Positions 42,001 to 48,000 of a DNA stretch of 64,000 nt are shown here, piece after piece. The position numbers are program-made. The stretch's first letter is position 1. Each line of letters begins with the position of its first letter. Location: positions 96,001 to 160,000 of the forward strand of contig JBFJCP010000001.1 of the NCBI GenBank assembly GCA_041615815.1, read 5' to 3'. Origin of the DNA: Gemmatimonadales bacterium. GTDB taxonomy: Bacteria > Gemmatimonadota > Gemmatimonadetes > Gemmatimonadales > GWC2-71-9.

Positions 42001-45000
42001 GTACAGGTACAACCGCCCGTCGTGCTCGAGGAAGTTGATACAATGGCCGCCCCCGTAGTTGAGCTGCTCGACCTGCCGGCCATCCTCCGTCTGGGGAGGC
42101 GCTGACCAGAACCGGTAGCGTTGCTGCTCGACGTCGTGGACGATGGATGTCGGCGTCAGCGGAAGCTCCGTGTCATGAAACTCGGACGCGTCTTCCTCCG
42201 GGACCTTCCGCCCGGTTCCCGGCTTCGCGATCACCACCGCGCACCACATGGCGTCGCCATCGTCTGCGACACGCCACTCGAGGAAAAAGCAGCGGCGATG
42301 GACCGCGACACCTTGGCATCCCGCCATGGCCTGGAACATCTTGTTCCACCCCCCACAGTAGCCGCCCTTTGCGAGAATCATCGCGCCGACGTGCCAAGCC
42401 CGAACCGCGTACTCCATCGAGGTGTTTTTGACGTTCGCAATGATCGCGTCACAGATGTCGACGGGACTGGAGAGTCCGGCGGCCCACTCGCACGTCCATT
42501 CCACGATCGGCAAGTACGTCCACTGCCCAACGGGAGAGGGTGTGTTACCCGGTGGTGCAGGGATGCCAAGCCAACGCCACGTGTCCGTGAGTGGTCCACC
42601 CGTCGTGTATACCGTGTGGGTGGAATCTCCGATGGCATCTGGGCCGCTGTCGCCTAAGGCGGACCACTCCCACCAGAGCTGTGTCTTGCCGATTTCGTTG
42701 GGTAGCGGAGCGTCGAGCGTAAACTCGATGGGCTGGGAGAGTCCTGAGGCATCGAAGGAAAGTGTCACATCCGTGCGCGGCGCCACACCGAGTTTGGATA
42801 CGGGGGGCTGCGCCTGCGGAGAAGGTCTGGCCTGAATGGTGAGCTTGCCACCTCCGCCCCCTTCGCCACGCCGGAATGTCACCTGAATCCGAGGCGTCGT
42901 GTTCTTGACATACGCCGCGGGCTCGGAACGCAGCCCCGCAATCCATTCCGGAGTCTTGCCGAGCAAATGATCGACCGGTGGGCGTTGCCATTTCTTCTGG
43001 TTGACCGTCGTCGCGGCCTTCAAGTCAACCCACGTCATGGGAGCGATCATATCGATCGCCCCAGCGTTGCCGGGAAAGGCGAAATGAATGCTATGCAGCG
43101 CGAGTTGTGGTGTACCAGCCGTCACGGCAACACCTCACGCTCTCTACTCGATCGGCGTCACGTCCTGGACCCACGCTCGGGCCCGGTGCCCGCGGTCTCC
43201 AAATAACGAGGCCATCACACGTTCGCAAGAGGACGAGATCGAGCATGGCACCCCTTGACGGTGCGTTGTTACATCCGTATATGGCATTTGGGAAACGTTT
43301 CTCTTCACTCAGGGGGATCAGTCATGACCCGCTTCACCGGCAAGGACCTGATGGTCACCGTACTGCCCGAAAGGGGCTTCGCCGCGGACTGCGACAAGGC
43401 CTGCACGAATCCGGGTTCCGAACGTGTTCGACCCTTCCGAGCGGCGGATCTGGAGGCTCTTCGGCGCGACCTTCGGCTCAGGCTCCGCTGATCAACCCCA
43501 ACATCTGATGTGGGTATTCGGGGGGTGACGGCGATCACCCCCTGGTGCCATGCGAGAACCCAGCGCGTACATGTGTCTGTAGTTCTTCGCCCCGGGTTAT
43601 TGACCCGCGCGTTTCGCGCACCCGCGCAGTACGATCTCGTCTCCGTGGAACGCCTCCCCGTCGACCAGCGACGCATTCTCGATGATCTCATCAGGGTTGG
43701 GTGTCCTGCCGTCCTGCTTCCCCGTGCCGAGAGTGGACACACGATCAAGATGCTGAGCCCGGAGACCACGGAGCTGGTCCGCGCGTTGAAGGAGCCCGGT
43801 CCGCTCCCACCAGGCGCGGTCGATCGCCTGGGCCGGCGGGCGGACGAGACCATTGCTCGGCTGGTCTTGGATGATATGCTCGAGATCGAGACGCACAGCG
43901 GCTTTGTGAGTGGCGTGGCAGCGAGTGAGGTCGTCCTGCAGATCGAGGACCCCGAGGCACCAGAAGGTCTCCTCAGCGAGCTGTCGTGGTCCGCCCTACA
44001 GTTTGGACAGGCGATGGAACTCGGTGAGCCTCTCGCCCTCGCCCGACGGCTGTACGGATACAACGCCGTTCCAGCGTCACCCCGCTACCGCCATCGTTTT
44101 CCAACGACCCGTGCCGTGGCCGAGTTTCTCGGTCTCGACGGCTTTGGCGCGAGCCTGCAACTCGTGGAGTCCGGTAGCGAACGCACCGTCGATTGGCGAC
44201 ACGGTGGCGCGTGGTGGTCCTGGTTGGCCGGCGACGCGGACGCGGTTCCGACCGGTCGACAGGTCTACAAGCTGTATGTGAGTCCTGAAGTCGAACAGTT
44301 GCGGGACGCGTTCCACACCGTCATCGGCACGATCGGGAAGGACGGCCCCTTCTGTTTCAAGGTCGGGCGGGATCTCCTCGGGATCTTGAGACCGGACAAA
44401 CTCGTGGCGTATTTCGCCCACCAGGAGCAACTCCAGGCGGCGTCCGAGAGGCTCAGCGACGAGCTCGACGGCATGCGCCCCCAGGGCGTCCCTTTCACGG
44501 CCGATGCCGGCGCCAACGGCCTGCTGTCGTGGGCCGTCGACCCTCCGCGCGACGACTGGTCACCGCAGTGGTACCGAGACCGGAGCTGGCGGATGTGGAT
44601 CACCCATCTGCTGGCTGCATCGCTGCATGCGGCACGAATGACCGCGCGGGCCCCGCTCCCGCCGTGGCACTTTGCGCAGGTGCGCGTGGCCCTTGAAGGC
44701 GTCAACCCCCAGACATGGGCCCCCACACCGGGGCCGTGGCATCTTGCGGCGTAGGAAGGTGCCGTGCTAGTCGCGGAGCCGTTGATCTTGCCGGAGGACG
44801 TTCTGATCGTTCCCGTGGCGGATCTCGCGCCCGAGGCGCGACGGAAACTTCAGAGCGATCTCGGAAGGTTCGCGGTGACGCGGCCCCGCTCCCGAGCACC
44901 CTCGATGGTCGTCGACGAGGGAGCCGCGGATCTGTTGCAGATGTTTCGCTCGGCAAGTGCGATCAACGACGTCATCCTGCGGTACAGTCGCGCGCGGCAG

Positions 45001-48000
45001 CTCGATCCCGAAGAGGTACTCGAGGGCGTGTTCCCGATCCTCAGCGGCTGCATCGCTTCGCAGTTTCTCGTTCCAGCCAATACACCGGAAGCGGACCGAA
45101 TTCTCCCGATCCTGAACTTGGACAGTCACGCCGGCCCCTTCGAGTTGATCCGGTGCGTCCAAGTCTTCGAGGACACCGAGGTGTATCAGGTGAAGACGCG
45201 AGCCGGATCGCTGGCGGCGCTGAAACTGTCTCGATCCAAGGGCGTTGCGACGCGGCGGCTGCTCGAGCGTGAGGCCGCGATTCTGAATCGTCTCGATGGG
45301 ACTACGACACCCGCCGTGGTTGGCGCTGGTGCCGTGCATGACCACCCGTATTTGGCCATAGAATGGCGGAGTGGGGTATCGGCACTCGTTGCGGCCCACG
45401 AATACCGCAACGACCCGCCGAAGTACCGGTCAGACCTCTTGATGCGTCTGTGCCACGGCGTCCTTCGCGCCTACGAACATGTGCACCGGCAGGGCGTCGT
45501 GCATGCCGACGTCCATCCGGGGAACATCATGATCGGACCGGACGGACGCGTCACCCTGCTCGATTTCGGGCTCGCACGAGCGGATGACGGTCCTCCCCAG
45601 TGGCGCACCGCTCCGCGCGGTGGCGTGGCGCCCTTTTACGAGCCTGAATTTGCCAACGCGCGGCTCGCCGGCGGCACGCTTCCGCAGGCCACATTCGTGG
45701 GCGAGCAATACGTGCTCGCGGCGTTGCTCTATCTGCTCCTCACGGGCCACCACTACGTGGATTTCTCGCTGACCGCTGACGAAGCGTTTGCACAGATTGC
45801 CCGGCAGAATCCCTTGCCTTTTTCGGTGCAGGGGGTTCCGCCATGGCCAGACGTGGAGCGGGTGCTGAGCGCGGCCTTGGCCAAGGAGCCGCGCGCACGG
45901 TTTCCCACGGTACAGGCCTTTGCCGCGGCGCTGCGTGGGGCGATGGATGCGGCCGCTCCGATCGCACCCGTCCCCAGTCCAGCTCGGCGAAGCCCCACCG
46001 ACGTGTTACTCGATCGCGTCGCCCGGAAGCTGGACCCGGCAGCCAAGCCGTATGCGCGCGGTCTTCAGGCGCCCCCGCAGGCATCCATCACGTACGGAGC
46101 AAGCGGGTTGGCCATTGCGGCGTACCGCTTGGCATGCATCCGATCGGATCCTCGAGCGCTCGCGGTAGCCGATGCCTGGCACACGCGGGCGGTGAACGAC
46201 ATGCGCTCCAGCCGGGCGTTTTACAACGCAGCCATCGGCGTCACGCGGGAAATCGTTGGCGAGACGTCGCCGTATCATACGGCGAGCGGCGTGCACGCTG
46301 CCGGGGTCTTGATCGGTGTGCTCCGGGGAGATGTGGCCGCAGTCCACGAAAGCGTAAGAGGTTTTGTCAGTGCGTCCGAACCGCTCGCCGCCCGTATCGA
46401 CCTGACGCTGGGGCGCGCGGGCACCTTGCTGGCGTGCAGCCTCTTGCTCGATGCACTGCCGCCCGAGTTCGCGGACGAGCGCACCCTTATGATGCACTTG
46501 GGAGGCCGAACCGCACGGACCATTCGCGAAAGCCTCGCGTCGTATGGGCCCATTCCTGAGTGTGTTCAGCTGCGCAGCCTTGGGATGGCGCATGGGTGGG
46601 CGGGTGTCCTCTTCAGTCTGCTGCGGTGGTATCGGGTATCTTCCGCTGGCCCGCCCCCCGAATTCGAGGCTTGGCTCTCCGAGCTTGCGGCGCAGGGGGA
46701 ATTGGCGGGACGGGGAATGCGTTGGCGCATGCGGACCGAGGGCCCGGATCTGGATCACCGTTCGTATATGAACGGGTGGTGTAATGGATCGGCTGGCCAC
46801 CTCTATCTGTGGACGCTGGCTCACCGCATGTTCGGTGTCGACGAGCACGCGGCGTTGGCCGAGCAAGTGGCGTGGAACGTTTGGGAGGAGCGCGGGTCGA
46901 TACCGACGCTCTGCTGCGGATTGGGAGGACAGGCGTACGCACTCCTCAAGTACTACCAGCATACCGGCGACCGAAGATGGTTGGTGAAGGCGCAGCACTT
47001 AGCGAGCATGGCGGCTGAGGAGTGCTTGAAGGAACAGGCGGTACCGTGGGAACCGTACCGCATGAGCCTGTTCAAAGGCGAGGTCGGAGTCGCCGTGTTG
47101 GCGGCGGATATATCACGCCCCGAAGGGGCGTCGATGCCGTTCTTTGACGAGGAGGGATGGTCCTAGCGACCGCACCATGTCCAAGCCCGAGCCGAAATCC
47201 CTCGAATGGATGCCGGAACCCGGGATTGGGTGTGATAGATCCTGCAATTGACTGAACCTATATTGAGCCGCGCTGTCGCTCCTCGCTCGGCAGCGTACTG
47301 AAACCTGCGGATGCTCGAAACACTCCGAACGGCGCTGAAGGGTCGCTACGAAGTCGATCGCGAGCTTGGTCGCGGCGGCATGGCCACGGTCTTTTTGGCC
47401 AAGGACCTGCGGCACGACCGACCGGTGGCCATCAAAGTGCTGCGGAGCGAACTCGCGGCGGCGTTGGGTCCAGAGCGGTTCCAACAAGAAATACGAGTTG
47501 CTGCCGGGTTGTCCCACCCCAATATCCTTGCGCTGTACGACTCGGGGGAGGCCAACGGTCTCCTTTACTACGTGATGCCGTTCGTCGAAGGGGAAAGCCT
47601 CGGCGACCGGTTGGCCCGCGAGACCCAACTGTCGATCGACGAGGCGCTGGCGATCACGCGGCAGGTCGCGCAAGCGCTGCACTACGCGCACGAGCGTGGG
47701 ATCGTTCACCGGGACGTCAAGCCGGACAACATCATGCTGCAGGGCGATCAGGCTCTCGTCGCGGACTTTGGCATTGCCCGAGCCGTCGACTCCCTGTCTC
47801 AGACGCGTCTCACGTCGACCGGCATCGTGATGGGCACGCCCGCGTACATGAGCCCGGAACAAGCAGCCGCGGAGAGCGACCTCGATGCCCGCAGCGACGT
47901 GTACAGTCTGGCCTGTGTGCTGTACGAGATGCTGAGCGGGGAAACACCGTTCCGGGGGACAACCGCACGGGCGATGCTCGCGCGGCATGCAGTGGAGCCG

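Follow-up and report, generated by a model that had tools for sequence, protein, structure and literature searches.

A probable split lanthipeptide-type synthetase with a stand-alone HopA1-type lyase and a kinase-LanC fusion in a Gemmatimonadales bacterium

Three closely packed genes at 43324–47166 on the + strand of the window, a 64,000-nucleotide stretch of Gemmatimonadales bacterium contig JBFJCP010000001.1, encoded a peptide of 55 aa, a protein of 414 aa with no family match and a kinase fused to LanC (800 aa). Together they probably form a split synthetase of the lanthipeptide type, a class IV/class V hybrid, whose substrate would be a precursor made up of leader, core and follower. The earlier note on this DNA had described this three-gene module and proposed a split synthetase with such a precursor. 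The ORFs were recovered at the same positions, and the proposal was supported by fold, residue conservation, gene linkage and precursor layout, all computed here, from which we infer the chemical steps (dehydration and ring formation), how the leader is docked and which rings form. The gaps between the ORFs were 18 nt (peptide/lyase) and 9 nt (lyase/kinase-LanC). No published description of a split three-gene layout of thioether-ring peptide machinery was found in the literature search.

The stand-alone lyase protein was called as a 414-aa ORF with a GTG start (43510–44754, +) on the basis of the ORF, the model and homologs. Residues 1–20 had pLDDT <50, homologs started near residues 25–35, and an alternative in-frame GTG at 43573 would give a 393-aa protein of homolog-like length. 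As the earlier note had reported, the protein had no Pfam or NCBIfam match, here at E ≤ 0.1. A phmmer search against 1.84e9 representatives returned 1326 matches at 1e-3, 1118 at 1e-10 and 646 at 1e-30; the first and last counts were identical to those given before. The two weak Pfam HopA1 matches previously claimed among 27 aligned family members were found again (best 0.0082), but RamC_N matched one member (0.25) and not two.

The AF2 model of the lyase protein had pLDDT 85.7 (88.1 in the earlier note, from a different alignment). Foldseek against PDB matched HopA1 4rsx (1.8e-6), LxmY 9dk2_B (2.3e-6), CuvL 8cav (1.9e-4), OspF 3i0u (9e-4) and ThurKC 8sam (1.3e-3), close to the values behind the previous assignment to the HopA1/LxmY/OspF fold. 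With VIA-align, the domain at residues about 146–410 (43945–44739, +) was matched best by HopA1 4rsx (Z 16.1, 229 aa) and, tied with it, class V LxmY 9dk3_B (Z 16.0, 233 aa), followed by the lyase domain of CuvL (Z 14.8), ThurKC (Z 14.6) and OspF (Z 10.7). K254, K284, R294, D296 and R361 were invariant in 255/255 relatives, and Y256 (253), Y301 (252), D344 (252) and R392 (250) were nearly so. The 27 positions conserved at ≥97% in these relatives all fell within residues 135–392, mostly in the lyase domain. The spacing K254-30-K284-10-R294-7-Y301 agreed with R187-32-K219-10-R229-7-Y236 of the class Va enzyme CaoY, whose lyase activity was abolished by K219A, as given in an excerpt of PMC9486802. 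The first catalytic position was Lys, as in OspF and LanL, whereas it is Arg in CaoY; Tyr256 occupied the position of the general acid His106 of SpvC. The protein has the fold of a HopA1/LxmY-type phospho-Ser/Thr lyase, and its putative active-site residues were assigned by spacing and invariance and not by superposition.

The kinase-LanC fusion protein (44764–47166, +; 800 aa, GTG start) was defined by its ORF, Pfam, NCBIfam and residue conservation. The Ser/Thr protein kinase domain covered residues about 139–400 (45178–45963, +), with Pfam Pkinase on residues 139–297 (E 1.8e-13). K154, H247, D249, N254 and D267 were conserved in 69/69 members and G269 in 68/69, and PknB kinases were the best PDB sequence matches of this domain. 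The LanC-like cyclase domain covered residues 444–794 (46093–47145, +; Pfam LANC_like, E 2e-24), and H610, W672, C673, C717, C718 and G719 were each present in 69/69. The best NCBIfam match over the kinase and LanC regions was NF038150 (LanL) at E 1.5e-43; it scored 149 bits, where the cut-off is 650, and its model positions 230–812 lay on residues 158–758. NF038151 gave 1.2e-29. These values reproduced the previous Pfam and NF038150 assignments without the lyase part. The protein retained all kinase and LanC catalytic residues and had no room for a lyase domain.

The earlier note had counted the reading CCG, in place of CHG, at the LanC zinc site against the assignment. The motif was present at C717-C718-G719, but it is shared by the whole family and corresponds to a three-Cys zinc variant that is already known; it is therefore neither a defect nor evidence against function. 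CCG likewise gives three Cys zinc ligands in type IIa LanM and the 'L-CCC' group, and this three-Cys cyclase is described as more reactive in excerpts of PMC11251773 and PMC10676316. Those cyclases belong to LanM enzymes or to lyase-kinase-cyclase fusions of the conventional kind, recognised with a VenL-derived lyase HMM, unlike the module.

Both enzymes started with related N-terminal domains that resemble RiPP recognition elements (RREs), a feature absent from the earlier note. In the lyase protein this domain covered residues about 30–145 (43597–43944, +) and its model had pLDDT 93. In a structure search against 48,161 chains, 15 of the best 25 matches were RiPP-maturation enzymes or PqqD. 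The Z values for the leader-binding domains of RRE enzymes (class I LanB NisB, MibB and MadB; TbtB; lasso B1; LynD; PqqD) ranged over 4.2–6.3 (MibB 6.3, TbtB 5.2, TbiB1 with leader 5.0, LynD 4.8, NisB 4.4, PbtF RRE 4.2); being <8, they lie below the level of a safe fold match and indicate resemblance, not proof. Foldseek E-values were 0.5–3. In the kinase-LanC protein the domain covered about residues 1–100 (44764–45063, +), and the N-termini of family members weakly matched Pfam ThcOx (9/27, best 4.9e-4), DUF7782 (7/27, 2.5e-5) and PqqD (6/27, 0.019). The window's own two N-domains had no Pfam RRE match. The two N-domains aligned with each other by hhalign (probability 85.4%, E 5.8e-6, 66 columns). 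Sequence similarity to RRE enzymes was marginal, and leader binding here is predicted. A 2023 structure paper stated that class II–V lanthipeptide enzymes have no identifiable RRE, and the literature search found no description of a lyase and a kinase-cyclase that each bear an RRE-like domain.

The precursor peptide gene (43324–43491, +) encoded 55 aa plus stop and had an SD-like GGGGGA 7 nt 5' of the ATG. It was identified by its ORF, the leader HMM and alignment, and had no Pfam or NCBIfam match (E ≤ 0.1). M1, F4, L9, C27, L46 and L50 were invariant in the alignment with 11 short-form precursors of other loci. The leader, residues 1–15 (MTRFTGKDLMVTVLP; 43324–43368, +), carried the N-terminal motif F..KDLMV.VLP. 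A leader HMM derived from other loci, excluding the window precursor, was positive on the upstream ORF of 69/81 loci, the window among them. The core, residues 16–41 (43369–43446, +), contained C23, C27, T28 and S32 (CDKACTNPGS), its only two Cys and two Ser/Thr. Its motif CxxxC[ST]xxx[ST] was enriched: it occurred in 13/70 leader-positive ORFs, at 2.1 per 1000 aa vs 0.05 in the six-frame background. The follower helix, residues 42–55 (DLEALRRDLRLRLR; 43447–43488, +), kept the pattern DL..L..qL...L in the short-form alignment. The follower HMM was positive in 55/81 loci, with the window's own follower under threshold, and leader and follower HMMs matched one ORF in 53/81. Upstream ORFs of the lyase-fetched loci had the same layout as previously described, a leader, a variable Cys-Ser-Thr core and a C-terminal amphipathic helix. 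Cores were 28–189 aa long with a median of 8 Cys, and consisted of 12.3% Cys and 18% Ser+Thr.

Gene linkage was investigated in 80 of 347 relatives, obtained via lyase patterns alone, unlike the peptide-pattern sample used before. The lyase/kinase-LanC pairing was strict in this independent sample too: a same-strand kinase(-LanC) gene lay downstream of the lyase gene in 78/80 loci, with a median gap of 31 nt (≤200 nt in 77). LanC was found in 75/80; the other five were all at a contig edge, and two of these also had no kinase match. A single ORF carried both kinase and LanC in 71/76 loci. The wide distribution claimed earlier was seen again, the loci belonging to Acidobacteriota, Gemmatimonadota, Eremiobacterota/Vulcanimicrobiota, Chloroflexota, Planctomycetota, Actinomycetota, Armatimonadota, Pseudomonadota, Bacillus and Nitrososphaerales; none of the 80 was from Cyanobacteria or Nitrospirota. 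The only LanC domain and the only lyase homolog in this genome were those of the module.

Through its kinase domain, the 800-aa protein would phosphorylate Ser/Thr of the core, and the 414-aa lyase would strip the phosphate by β-elimination to give Dha/Dhb. K284 is the likely lyase base, surrounded by K254, R294, Y301, D344, R361 and R392. The zinc LanC domain (C673, C717, C718; H610) would add Cys thiols to form thioether rings, and the window core would permit two Cys(i)-to-Ser/Thr(i+5) rings. The most likely task of the RRE-like domains is to bind the leader in the form of a β-strand; with a separate docking domain on each enzyme, two unfused polypeptides could work on one substrate. The follower may serve as a second docking site, in oligomerisation or in a later function.

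Class IV LanL enzymes (VenL, SgbL, CuvL) likewise have a Pkinase-type kinase fused to a zinc LanC, share the lyase fold and carry out the same three chemical steps. Their lyase, however, is the N-terminal domain of one polypeptide, their zinc site is Cys-Cys-His, and according to parts of PMC8341899 and PMC10604976 they bind the leader by way of the kinase domain, with no RRE involved; the conserved follower is a feature of the module precursor. Class III LanKC enzymes (ThurKC, CurKC, PneKC) have homologous lyase, kinase and LanC-like domains, as seen in the ThurKC lyase and NF038151 matches, but all in a single polypeptide; its cyclase has no zinc ligands, and its leader binds as an amphipathic helix, with no RRE. 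Class VI LanKCb of Streptococcus is also kinase-based and has a reduced lyase part, but passages of PMC10676316 and PMC12328550 describe one protein in which the lyase and cyclase domains are truncated, miniature peptides and occurrence in streptococci only. Class V systems (Va LanK/LanY/LanX, i.e. LxmKYX and CaoKYX; Vb SmoK/SmoY/SmoC) have a free-standing HopA1-type lyase, as in the module. LxmY aligned only from residue 146 of the module lyase, the extra N-terminal RRE-like domain being the module's. Class V has three separate polypeptides and an APH-type kinase (excerpt of PMC10604976), in contrast to the Pkinase-type kinase fused to LanC here, and part of the review PMC12328550 reports it from actinobacteria only. 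The same part of that review gives class Vb a true LanC cyclase with a separate kinase and lyase, and class Vb must be added to the closest known systems named in the earlier reading.

Points against the split-synthetase reading were the window core with its two Cys and two Ser/Thr, the sub-threshold follower, the low-scoring RRE matches, the assignment of catalytic residues by spacing, with Tyr256 where SpvC has His106, the LanCL-like LanC sequence and the linked genes: no conserved protease or transporter was found in the neighbourhood of module loci. This last point, together with cores of up to 32 Cys, would suit the same enzymes making no small secreted peptide but a product the size of a protein, crosslinked by thioethers, which retains the C-terminal coiled-coil and functions within the cell or on it, perhaps in a structural or metal-handling role. 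Precursors elsewhere reached 130–280 aa with a long conserved helical tail, and 28/53 had >30 residues beyond the first follower helix. Such a product is nevertheless unlikely; the window precursor has just 55 aa, 14 of them in the follower, Gemmatimonadota and Thermoanaerobaculia often have short forms, and for other lanthipeptides unlinked proteases and exporters are known (a figure legend of PMC10604976 names external genome proteases).

The LanC part raised another explanation, since its best solved sequence relatives were eukaryotic LanCL1, LanCL2 and a plant LanC-like protein, with no lanthipeptide synthetase in the best 60 matches listed. LanCL1/2 add glutathione and do not cyclise peptides. 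Kinase and lyase might then dehydrate while LanC adds a small-molecule thiol or quenches dehydroamino acids, giving no intramolecular rings. The Cys-rich cores and the invariant Cys of the short-form alignment fit intramolecular addition, and NF038150 was the best NCBIfam match over the kinase and LanC regions; this LanCL-like role is quite improbable. There is only a very slight chance that the pair makes no RiPP and serves in signalling or protein inactivation, the kinase marking Ser/Thr of cellular proteins, the OspF-like lyase removing these irreversibly and the small ORF being incidental. OspF, SpvC and HopA1, by their entry titles, act on proteins and not on RiPPs, and this genome had about 60 Ser/Thr kinase matches; against this stood the leader-motif ORF upstream of the enzymes in many phyla, its cores rich in Cys, Ser and Thr, and RRE-like peptide-docking domains on both enzymes.

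The module at 43324-47166 (+) consists of three co-directional ORFs, separated by gaps of 18 nt and 9 nt in the ORF call. The precursor peptide (55 aa) starts at the ATG at 43324, with GGGGGA 7 nt 5' of the start codon. The lyase protein (414 aa) starts at the GTG at 43510; a second in-frame GTG at 43573 would give 393 aa, the length typical of the homologs. The third ORF encodes the kinase-LanC protein (800 aa), with Pkinase on residues 139-297 and LANC_like on residues 444-794. Searches of Pfam and NCBIfam gave no family match for the 55-aa peptide or the 414-aa protein. The earlier note had described this feature as a split lanthionine synthetase with a leader-core-follower precursor. 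Its Pfam and NCBIfam figures were reproduced exactly on repeat; the feature is real, and its interpretation as a split synthetase was supported.

Homologous loci were fetched by two lyase peptide patterns, independent of the precursor pattern used in the earlier note. A total of 379 stretches matched, 347 of them with a relative, and the best 80 of the 347 were kept. A same-strand kinase homolog was found 3' of the lyase gene in 78 of the 80 loci, with a median gap of 31 nt and a gap of 200 nt or less in 77. LanC was found downstream in 75 of the 80; the five loci lacking it, two of which also lack the kinase, all run into a contig edge. The kinase and LanC parts formed a single ORF in 71 of 76 loci. 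The parts lie in different frames in L008, L026, L042, L045 (the isolate genome of Amaricoccus macauensis) and L059, which could be due to frameshifts or assembly errors, or the two parts could really be separate genes. The sole gap above 200 nt among the 78 loci was in L065, where a 368-aa ORF of unknown function (L065:5385-6491) lies between the lyase and kinase-LanC genes. Judged from the record titles, the 80 loci belong to Acidobacteriota (50), Gemmatimonadota (7), Eremiobacterota/Vulcanimicrobiota (7), Actinomycetota (4), Chloroflexota (3), Pseudomonadota (3), Bacillus (2), Planctomycetota (1), Armatimonadota (1) and Nitrososphaerales archaea (2). Members of the family occur in no fewer than nine bacterial phyla and, among archaea, in Nitrososphaerales. 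Clustering of the flanking genes in the fetched loci gave no conserved protease or transporter. A protein of about 221 aa, whose N-terminus resembles a signal peptide and which lacks a Pfam match, lies 3' of the kinase-LanC gene in 23 loci (e.g. L036:9611-10273) and is absent from the window.

The family of the lyase protein is large and unnamed. A word-indexed search gave 338 matches, and every named one was a 'hypothetical protein'; none of the 120 matches listed carried a precomputed Pfam domain. In the exhaustive search, the cluster representatives numbered 1326 at 1e-3, 1118 at 1e-10 and 646 at 1e-30; clustered at 50% identity, the family comprises more than 1,300 sequence clusters. By sequence, its link to known lyases is faint: Pfam HopA1 was matched weakly by 2 of 27 members (best 0.0082) and RamC_N by 1 of 27, and a PDB sequence search with the lyase profile gave nothing significant (best E 0.3). 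A search for longer, fused lyase homologs (726-2070 aa) had no match at E<=0.001, a negative that carries little weight.

The structure of the lyase protein was modeled by AF2 from a 27-sequence alignment, with a pLDDT of 85.7. The top Foldseek ranks were phospho-Ser/Thr lyases only: HopA1 (1.8e-6), LxmY (2.3e-6), the class IV synthetase CuvL (1.9e-4), OspF (9e-4) and the class III synthetase ThurKC (1.3e-3). VIA-align placed model residues 146-408 on HopA1 (Z 16.1, 229 residues, rmsd 4.0) and on LxmY (Z 16.0, 233 residues), followed by the CuvL lyase domain (Z 14.8), ThurKC (Z 14.6), OspF (Z 10.7) and SpvC (Z 9.3-10.5); the first unrelated folds appeared at Z 8.1 or below. In the predicted model, the lyase protein shares the alpha/beta lyase fold of the OspF/SpvC/HopA1 superfamily.

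The conservation of the lyase protein was investigated in 255 relatives. The 27 positions conserved in at least 97% were all within residues 135-392. K254, S258, K284, R294, D296, P328, S359 and R361 were present in all 255; Y256 and K297 were present in 253 each, Y301 and D344 in 252 each, and R392 in 250. The spacing K254-30-K284-10-R294-7-Y301 resembles R187-32-K219-10-R229-7-Y236 of CaoY, and the spacing in SpvC is also similar. According to the available text of PMC9486802, the K219A variant of CaoY no longer carries out elimination, and R187 is an important residue. The candidate catalytic residues were mapped onto CaoY and SpvC by spacing and invariance rather than by residue-level superposition; by this mapping, the position of SpvC His106 is a Tyr in the lyase protein.

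Since LxmY and HopA1 align from model residue 146 only, residues ~30-145 of the lyase protein are an extra domain. This N-domain, folded alone, had a pLDDT of 93 and was compared with 48,161 representative chains, with the Foldseek prefilter omitted. The best rows were MibB 192-288 (Z 6.3), TigE (6.0), TbtB (5.2) and TbiB1 with leader peptide (5.0), followed by lasso B1 with leader (5.0), LynD (4.8), MadB (4.8), MccB (4.5), PqqD (4.5), NisB with leader (4.4) and the PbtF RRE (4.2), and then by ThcOx, CteB, SuiB, McbBCD and TglHI. RiPP-maturation enzymes or PqqD made up 15 of the 25 top rows, with Z of only 3.5-6.3. The same enzyme kinds were ranked first by Foldseek, with E of only 0.5-3. The aligned ranges in the matched RiPP enzymes are what we take to be their leader-binding parts. 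The domain was named 'RRE-like' (RRE, RiPP recognition element) because its Z falls short of what a safe fold match requires. As modeled, the 414-aa protein is a two-domain lyase, with an RRE-like N-domain and a lyase domain.

The kinase-LanC protein also carries about 138 residues ahead of its kinase domain, where no lyase was matched and PqqD/ThcOx were matched in family members. In per-member Pfam searches with the first 140 residues, ThcOx was matched by 9 of 27 members (best 4.9e-4), DUF7782 by 7 of 27 (2.5e-5) and PqqD by 6 of 27 (0.019); the window's own N-terminus had no Pfam match in the same search. Profile-profile comparison (hhalign) aligned kinase-LanC residues 6-71 with lyase residues 34-103 over 66 columns (probability 85.4%, E 5.8e-6). 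An ESM Atlas search with the two N-terminal domains gave no usable match, and a PDB sequence search with the kinase-LanC N-terminus found nothing. The resemblance in models and profiles suggests that both enzymes start with mutually related RRE-like domains, for which leader binding is putative. Residues 1-138 of the kinase-LanC protein could instead be the leader recognition domain of class III/IV enzymes (PMC9828337), and the PqqD/ThcOx matches in the family favor an RRE-like domain over it. The RRE-like domains contrast with a statement in the available text of a 2023 structure paper that an identifiable RRE is missing from all class II-V lanthipeptide enzymes (PMC10604976; also PMC8341899 and PMC13504147). 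The same sources, in the parts available, describe class III leaders as an amphipathic helix bound on the kinase.

Pkinase matched the kinase-LanC protein at 1.8e-13, and APH matched residues 241-275 only. NF038150 (LanL) matched at 1.5e-43 with 149.3 bits against a cut-off of 650, covering model positions 230-812 only, and NF038151 (class III LanKC) reached 103 bits against a cut-off of 575. The best solved sequence relatives were PknB-type kinases and LanCL1/LanCL2, and no lanthipeptide synthetase was among the best 60 PDB sequence matches listed. The names of relatives in databases were 'serine/threonine-protein kinase' or 'lanthionine synthetase LanC family protein'. Among 69 complete family members, kinase residues K154, H247, D249, N254 and D267 were invariant and G269 was present in 68; LanC residues H610, W672, C673, C717, C718 and G719 were likewise invariant. 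The predicted zinc ligands are C673, C717 and, in all 69, C718 in place of His. The CCG motif is a family trait, since it is invariant. A dead cyclase would be another reading of this motif; it was rejected on the grounds of the invariance and of the known zinc-site variant, as three-Cys zinc sites are described in the available text of PMC10676316 and PMC11251773, the latter terming three-Cys cyclases more reactive. Judged from its conserved residues, the kinase-LanC protein looks active as kinase and cyclase.

In most loci, the + strand ORF directly 5' of the lyase gene comprised an N-terminal motif, a variable core and a helix. The leader motif is M.F+v+DLMv.vlP. The cores are often repeats, such as CTPSPP, CP(E/D)DT, GCYASGG and CTxxCT, and the follower helix is L..LK.QL...L..vE, often lengthened by PQTV.EvE.L..KL..A..EL. 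Short leader and follower HMMs were compared with 397 upstream segments at i-E < 0.01. Among the 81 loci (the 80 and the window), the leader HMM was positive in 69, the follower HMM in 55, and both on one ORF in 53. A regular-expression screen, which had given precursors in 61 of 81 loci, took several wrong leaders and was superseded by these HMMs; jackhmmer seeded with the window peptide alone reached only 20 other loci. The cores were 28-189 aa long, with a median of 78 aa, and held 1-32 Cys, with a median of 8; their composition was 12.3% Cys, 11.4% Thr and 6.6% Ser. More than 30 residues followed the first helix in 28 of 53 precursors. No Pfam or NCBIfam family covers the precursors; long ones gave sub-threshold coiled-coil noise only.

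The window peptide was above the threshold for the leader HMM and below it for the follower HMM. Alignment with 11 short forms showed M1, F4, L9, C27, L46 and L50 to be invariant, with a plain DL..L..qL...L helix. Its core, CDKACTNPGS, fits CxxxC[ST]xxx[ST], a motif carried by 13 of the 70 ORFs with a positive leader HMM. These 13 come from several phyla (e.g. CPGGCSNPDT in Bacillus and CDAGCSHGGS in Nitrososphaerales), and the motif is enriched 42-fold over the six-frame background. This motif would permit two Cys(i)-to-Ser/Thr(i+5) rings, predicted in the window peptide as C23-T28 and C27-S32. Tandem-repeat cores were observed at L066:4747-5127, L002:2908-3369 and L036:5667-5936 and in L022, L034 and L037; the repeats in these loci are ACDGESTREV (five copies), CESGTACPEGTEPP, CTPSPP and GCYASGG, which suggests that the cores grow by duplication of tandem peptide repeats. 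Two Nitrososphaerales ORFs (L072:1862-2599 and L074:5235-5972) contain two helical follower-like modules around one leader and core, with a long proline run.

Six lanthipeptide synthetase classes are counted at present in the available text of PMC13509491 (Aug 2026), and the layout of the module fits none of them. The module is predicted to work like class IV LanL, and an active-type kinase domain is common to both; however, the module is below the NF038150 cut-off, has no lyase domain in cis and has Cys rather than His as predicted third zinc ligand. In class III LanKC, the cyclase lacks zinc ligands and the lyase is in the same polypeptide, whereas the module has invariant zinc-ligand cysteines and a separate lyase. 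Class V shares the free-standing HopA1-type lyase, LanY, with the module, and class Vb SmoK/Y/C, in the available description, also a true LanC. In class V, however, LanK is a stand-alone APH-family kinase and the cyclase is separate (LanX, or LanC in Vb), whereas the module kinase is of the Pkinase type and LanC-fused in most loci, LanC being its C-terminal domain; the RRE-like domains are a further difference. Class VI, as described in the available source, is one single streptococcal protein.

The modeled folds, the conservation, the gene linkage and the precursor anatomy are shown here, and from them we infer a four-step mechanism that we regard as likely. The leader would be docked by the RRE-like domain of each enzyme, and core Ser/Thr would be phosphorylated by the kinase domain. 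Elimination of the phosphate by the free lyase would follow, and the LanC domain, with its predicted three-Cys zinc site, would close thioether rings. A lanthionine/methyllanthionine product is expected from this set of enzymes and from cores rich in Cys, Ser and Thr. As the class III leaders are helical, the follower may by analogy act as a second docking helix; alternatively, it may be an element serving the mature product. A wider reading, which we put forward tentatively, is a further RRE-dependent lanthipeptide synthetase class, a class IV/V hybrid (free RRE-lyase plus RRE-kinase-LanC(CCC)) with leader-core-follower substrates. Many members would form dozens of thioether rings in repeat-rich cores as long as ~190 residues. 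Their products would be poly-lanthionine mini-proteins with a retained coiled-coil tail, and one of the two enzymes would use the conserved follower as a second docking element.

The class IV kinase-cyclase fusion and the class V free lyase are united in the module, with putative RRE-like docking domains added. In the full-text literature covered (open papers, with few supplements), no stand-alone lyase with a kinase-LanC fusion was described, no RRE-like domain was reported in such kinase-LanC/lyase enzymes, and there was neither a lanthipeptide follower nor a counterpart of the module's follower. The mining method in the available text of PMC7268733 classifies on Pkinase plus LANC_like. Pipelines of this kind will probably have entered these loci under class III/IV, and the lyase and precursors stay 'hypothetical' or uncalled under such rules. 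The supplement of PMC7268733 was checked for the carrier genera, and no family member was found among the entries listed in its available part. The module is common in little-cultured soil phyla and present in archaea, and its unusual precursors, whose C-terminal follower is conserved and whose repeat cores are very rich in Cys, could give new ring topologies. The pathway is open to direct testing in the cultured carriers Bacillus pfraonensis, Bacillus sp. Xin1, Amaricoccus macauensis DSM 101730 and Streptomyces sp. KLOTTS4A1.

The own genome (4.19 Mb) has one LanC domain and one lyase homolog, both in the module. A whole-genome NF038150 search gave no match above the cut-off, and canonical LanL is absent. 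The kinase part of the LanL model matched at about 60 separate places, and the genome is unusually kinase-rich. Immediately 3' of the module, a 989-aa Ser/Thr kinase is encoded at 47311-50280 (+); its C-terminal region is long. Residues 374-634 of this kinase partially match TIGR04510 'putative peptide modification system cyclase' (1.6e-15, far under the cut-off); as far as flank clustering tells, it has no conserved place beside the module elsewhere. A 488-aa ORF without Pfam or NCBIfam matches (41659-43125, -) is divergent from the module. The promoter and terminator scan gave no promoter-like site and two terminator-like sites, below the count in shuffles. A possible promoter, TTGACG and TATATG with a 17-nt spacer, lies at 43255-43283 (+), ~40 nt 5' of the precursor ATG; it was unreported by the consensus scan because its final base is not T. 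Farther upstream, at 39713-40676 (+), an ECF sigma factor (Sigma70_r2, r4_2) is followed by a 134-aa ORF without a family match, which is possibly its anti-sigma factor.
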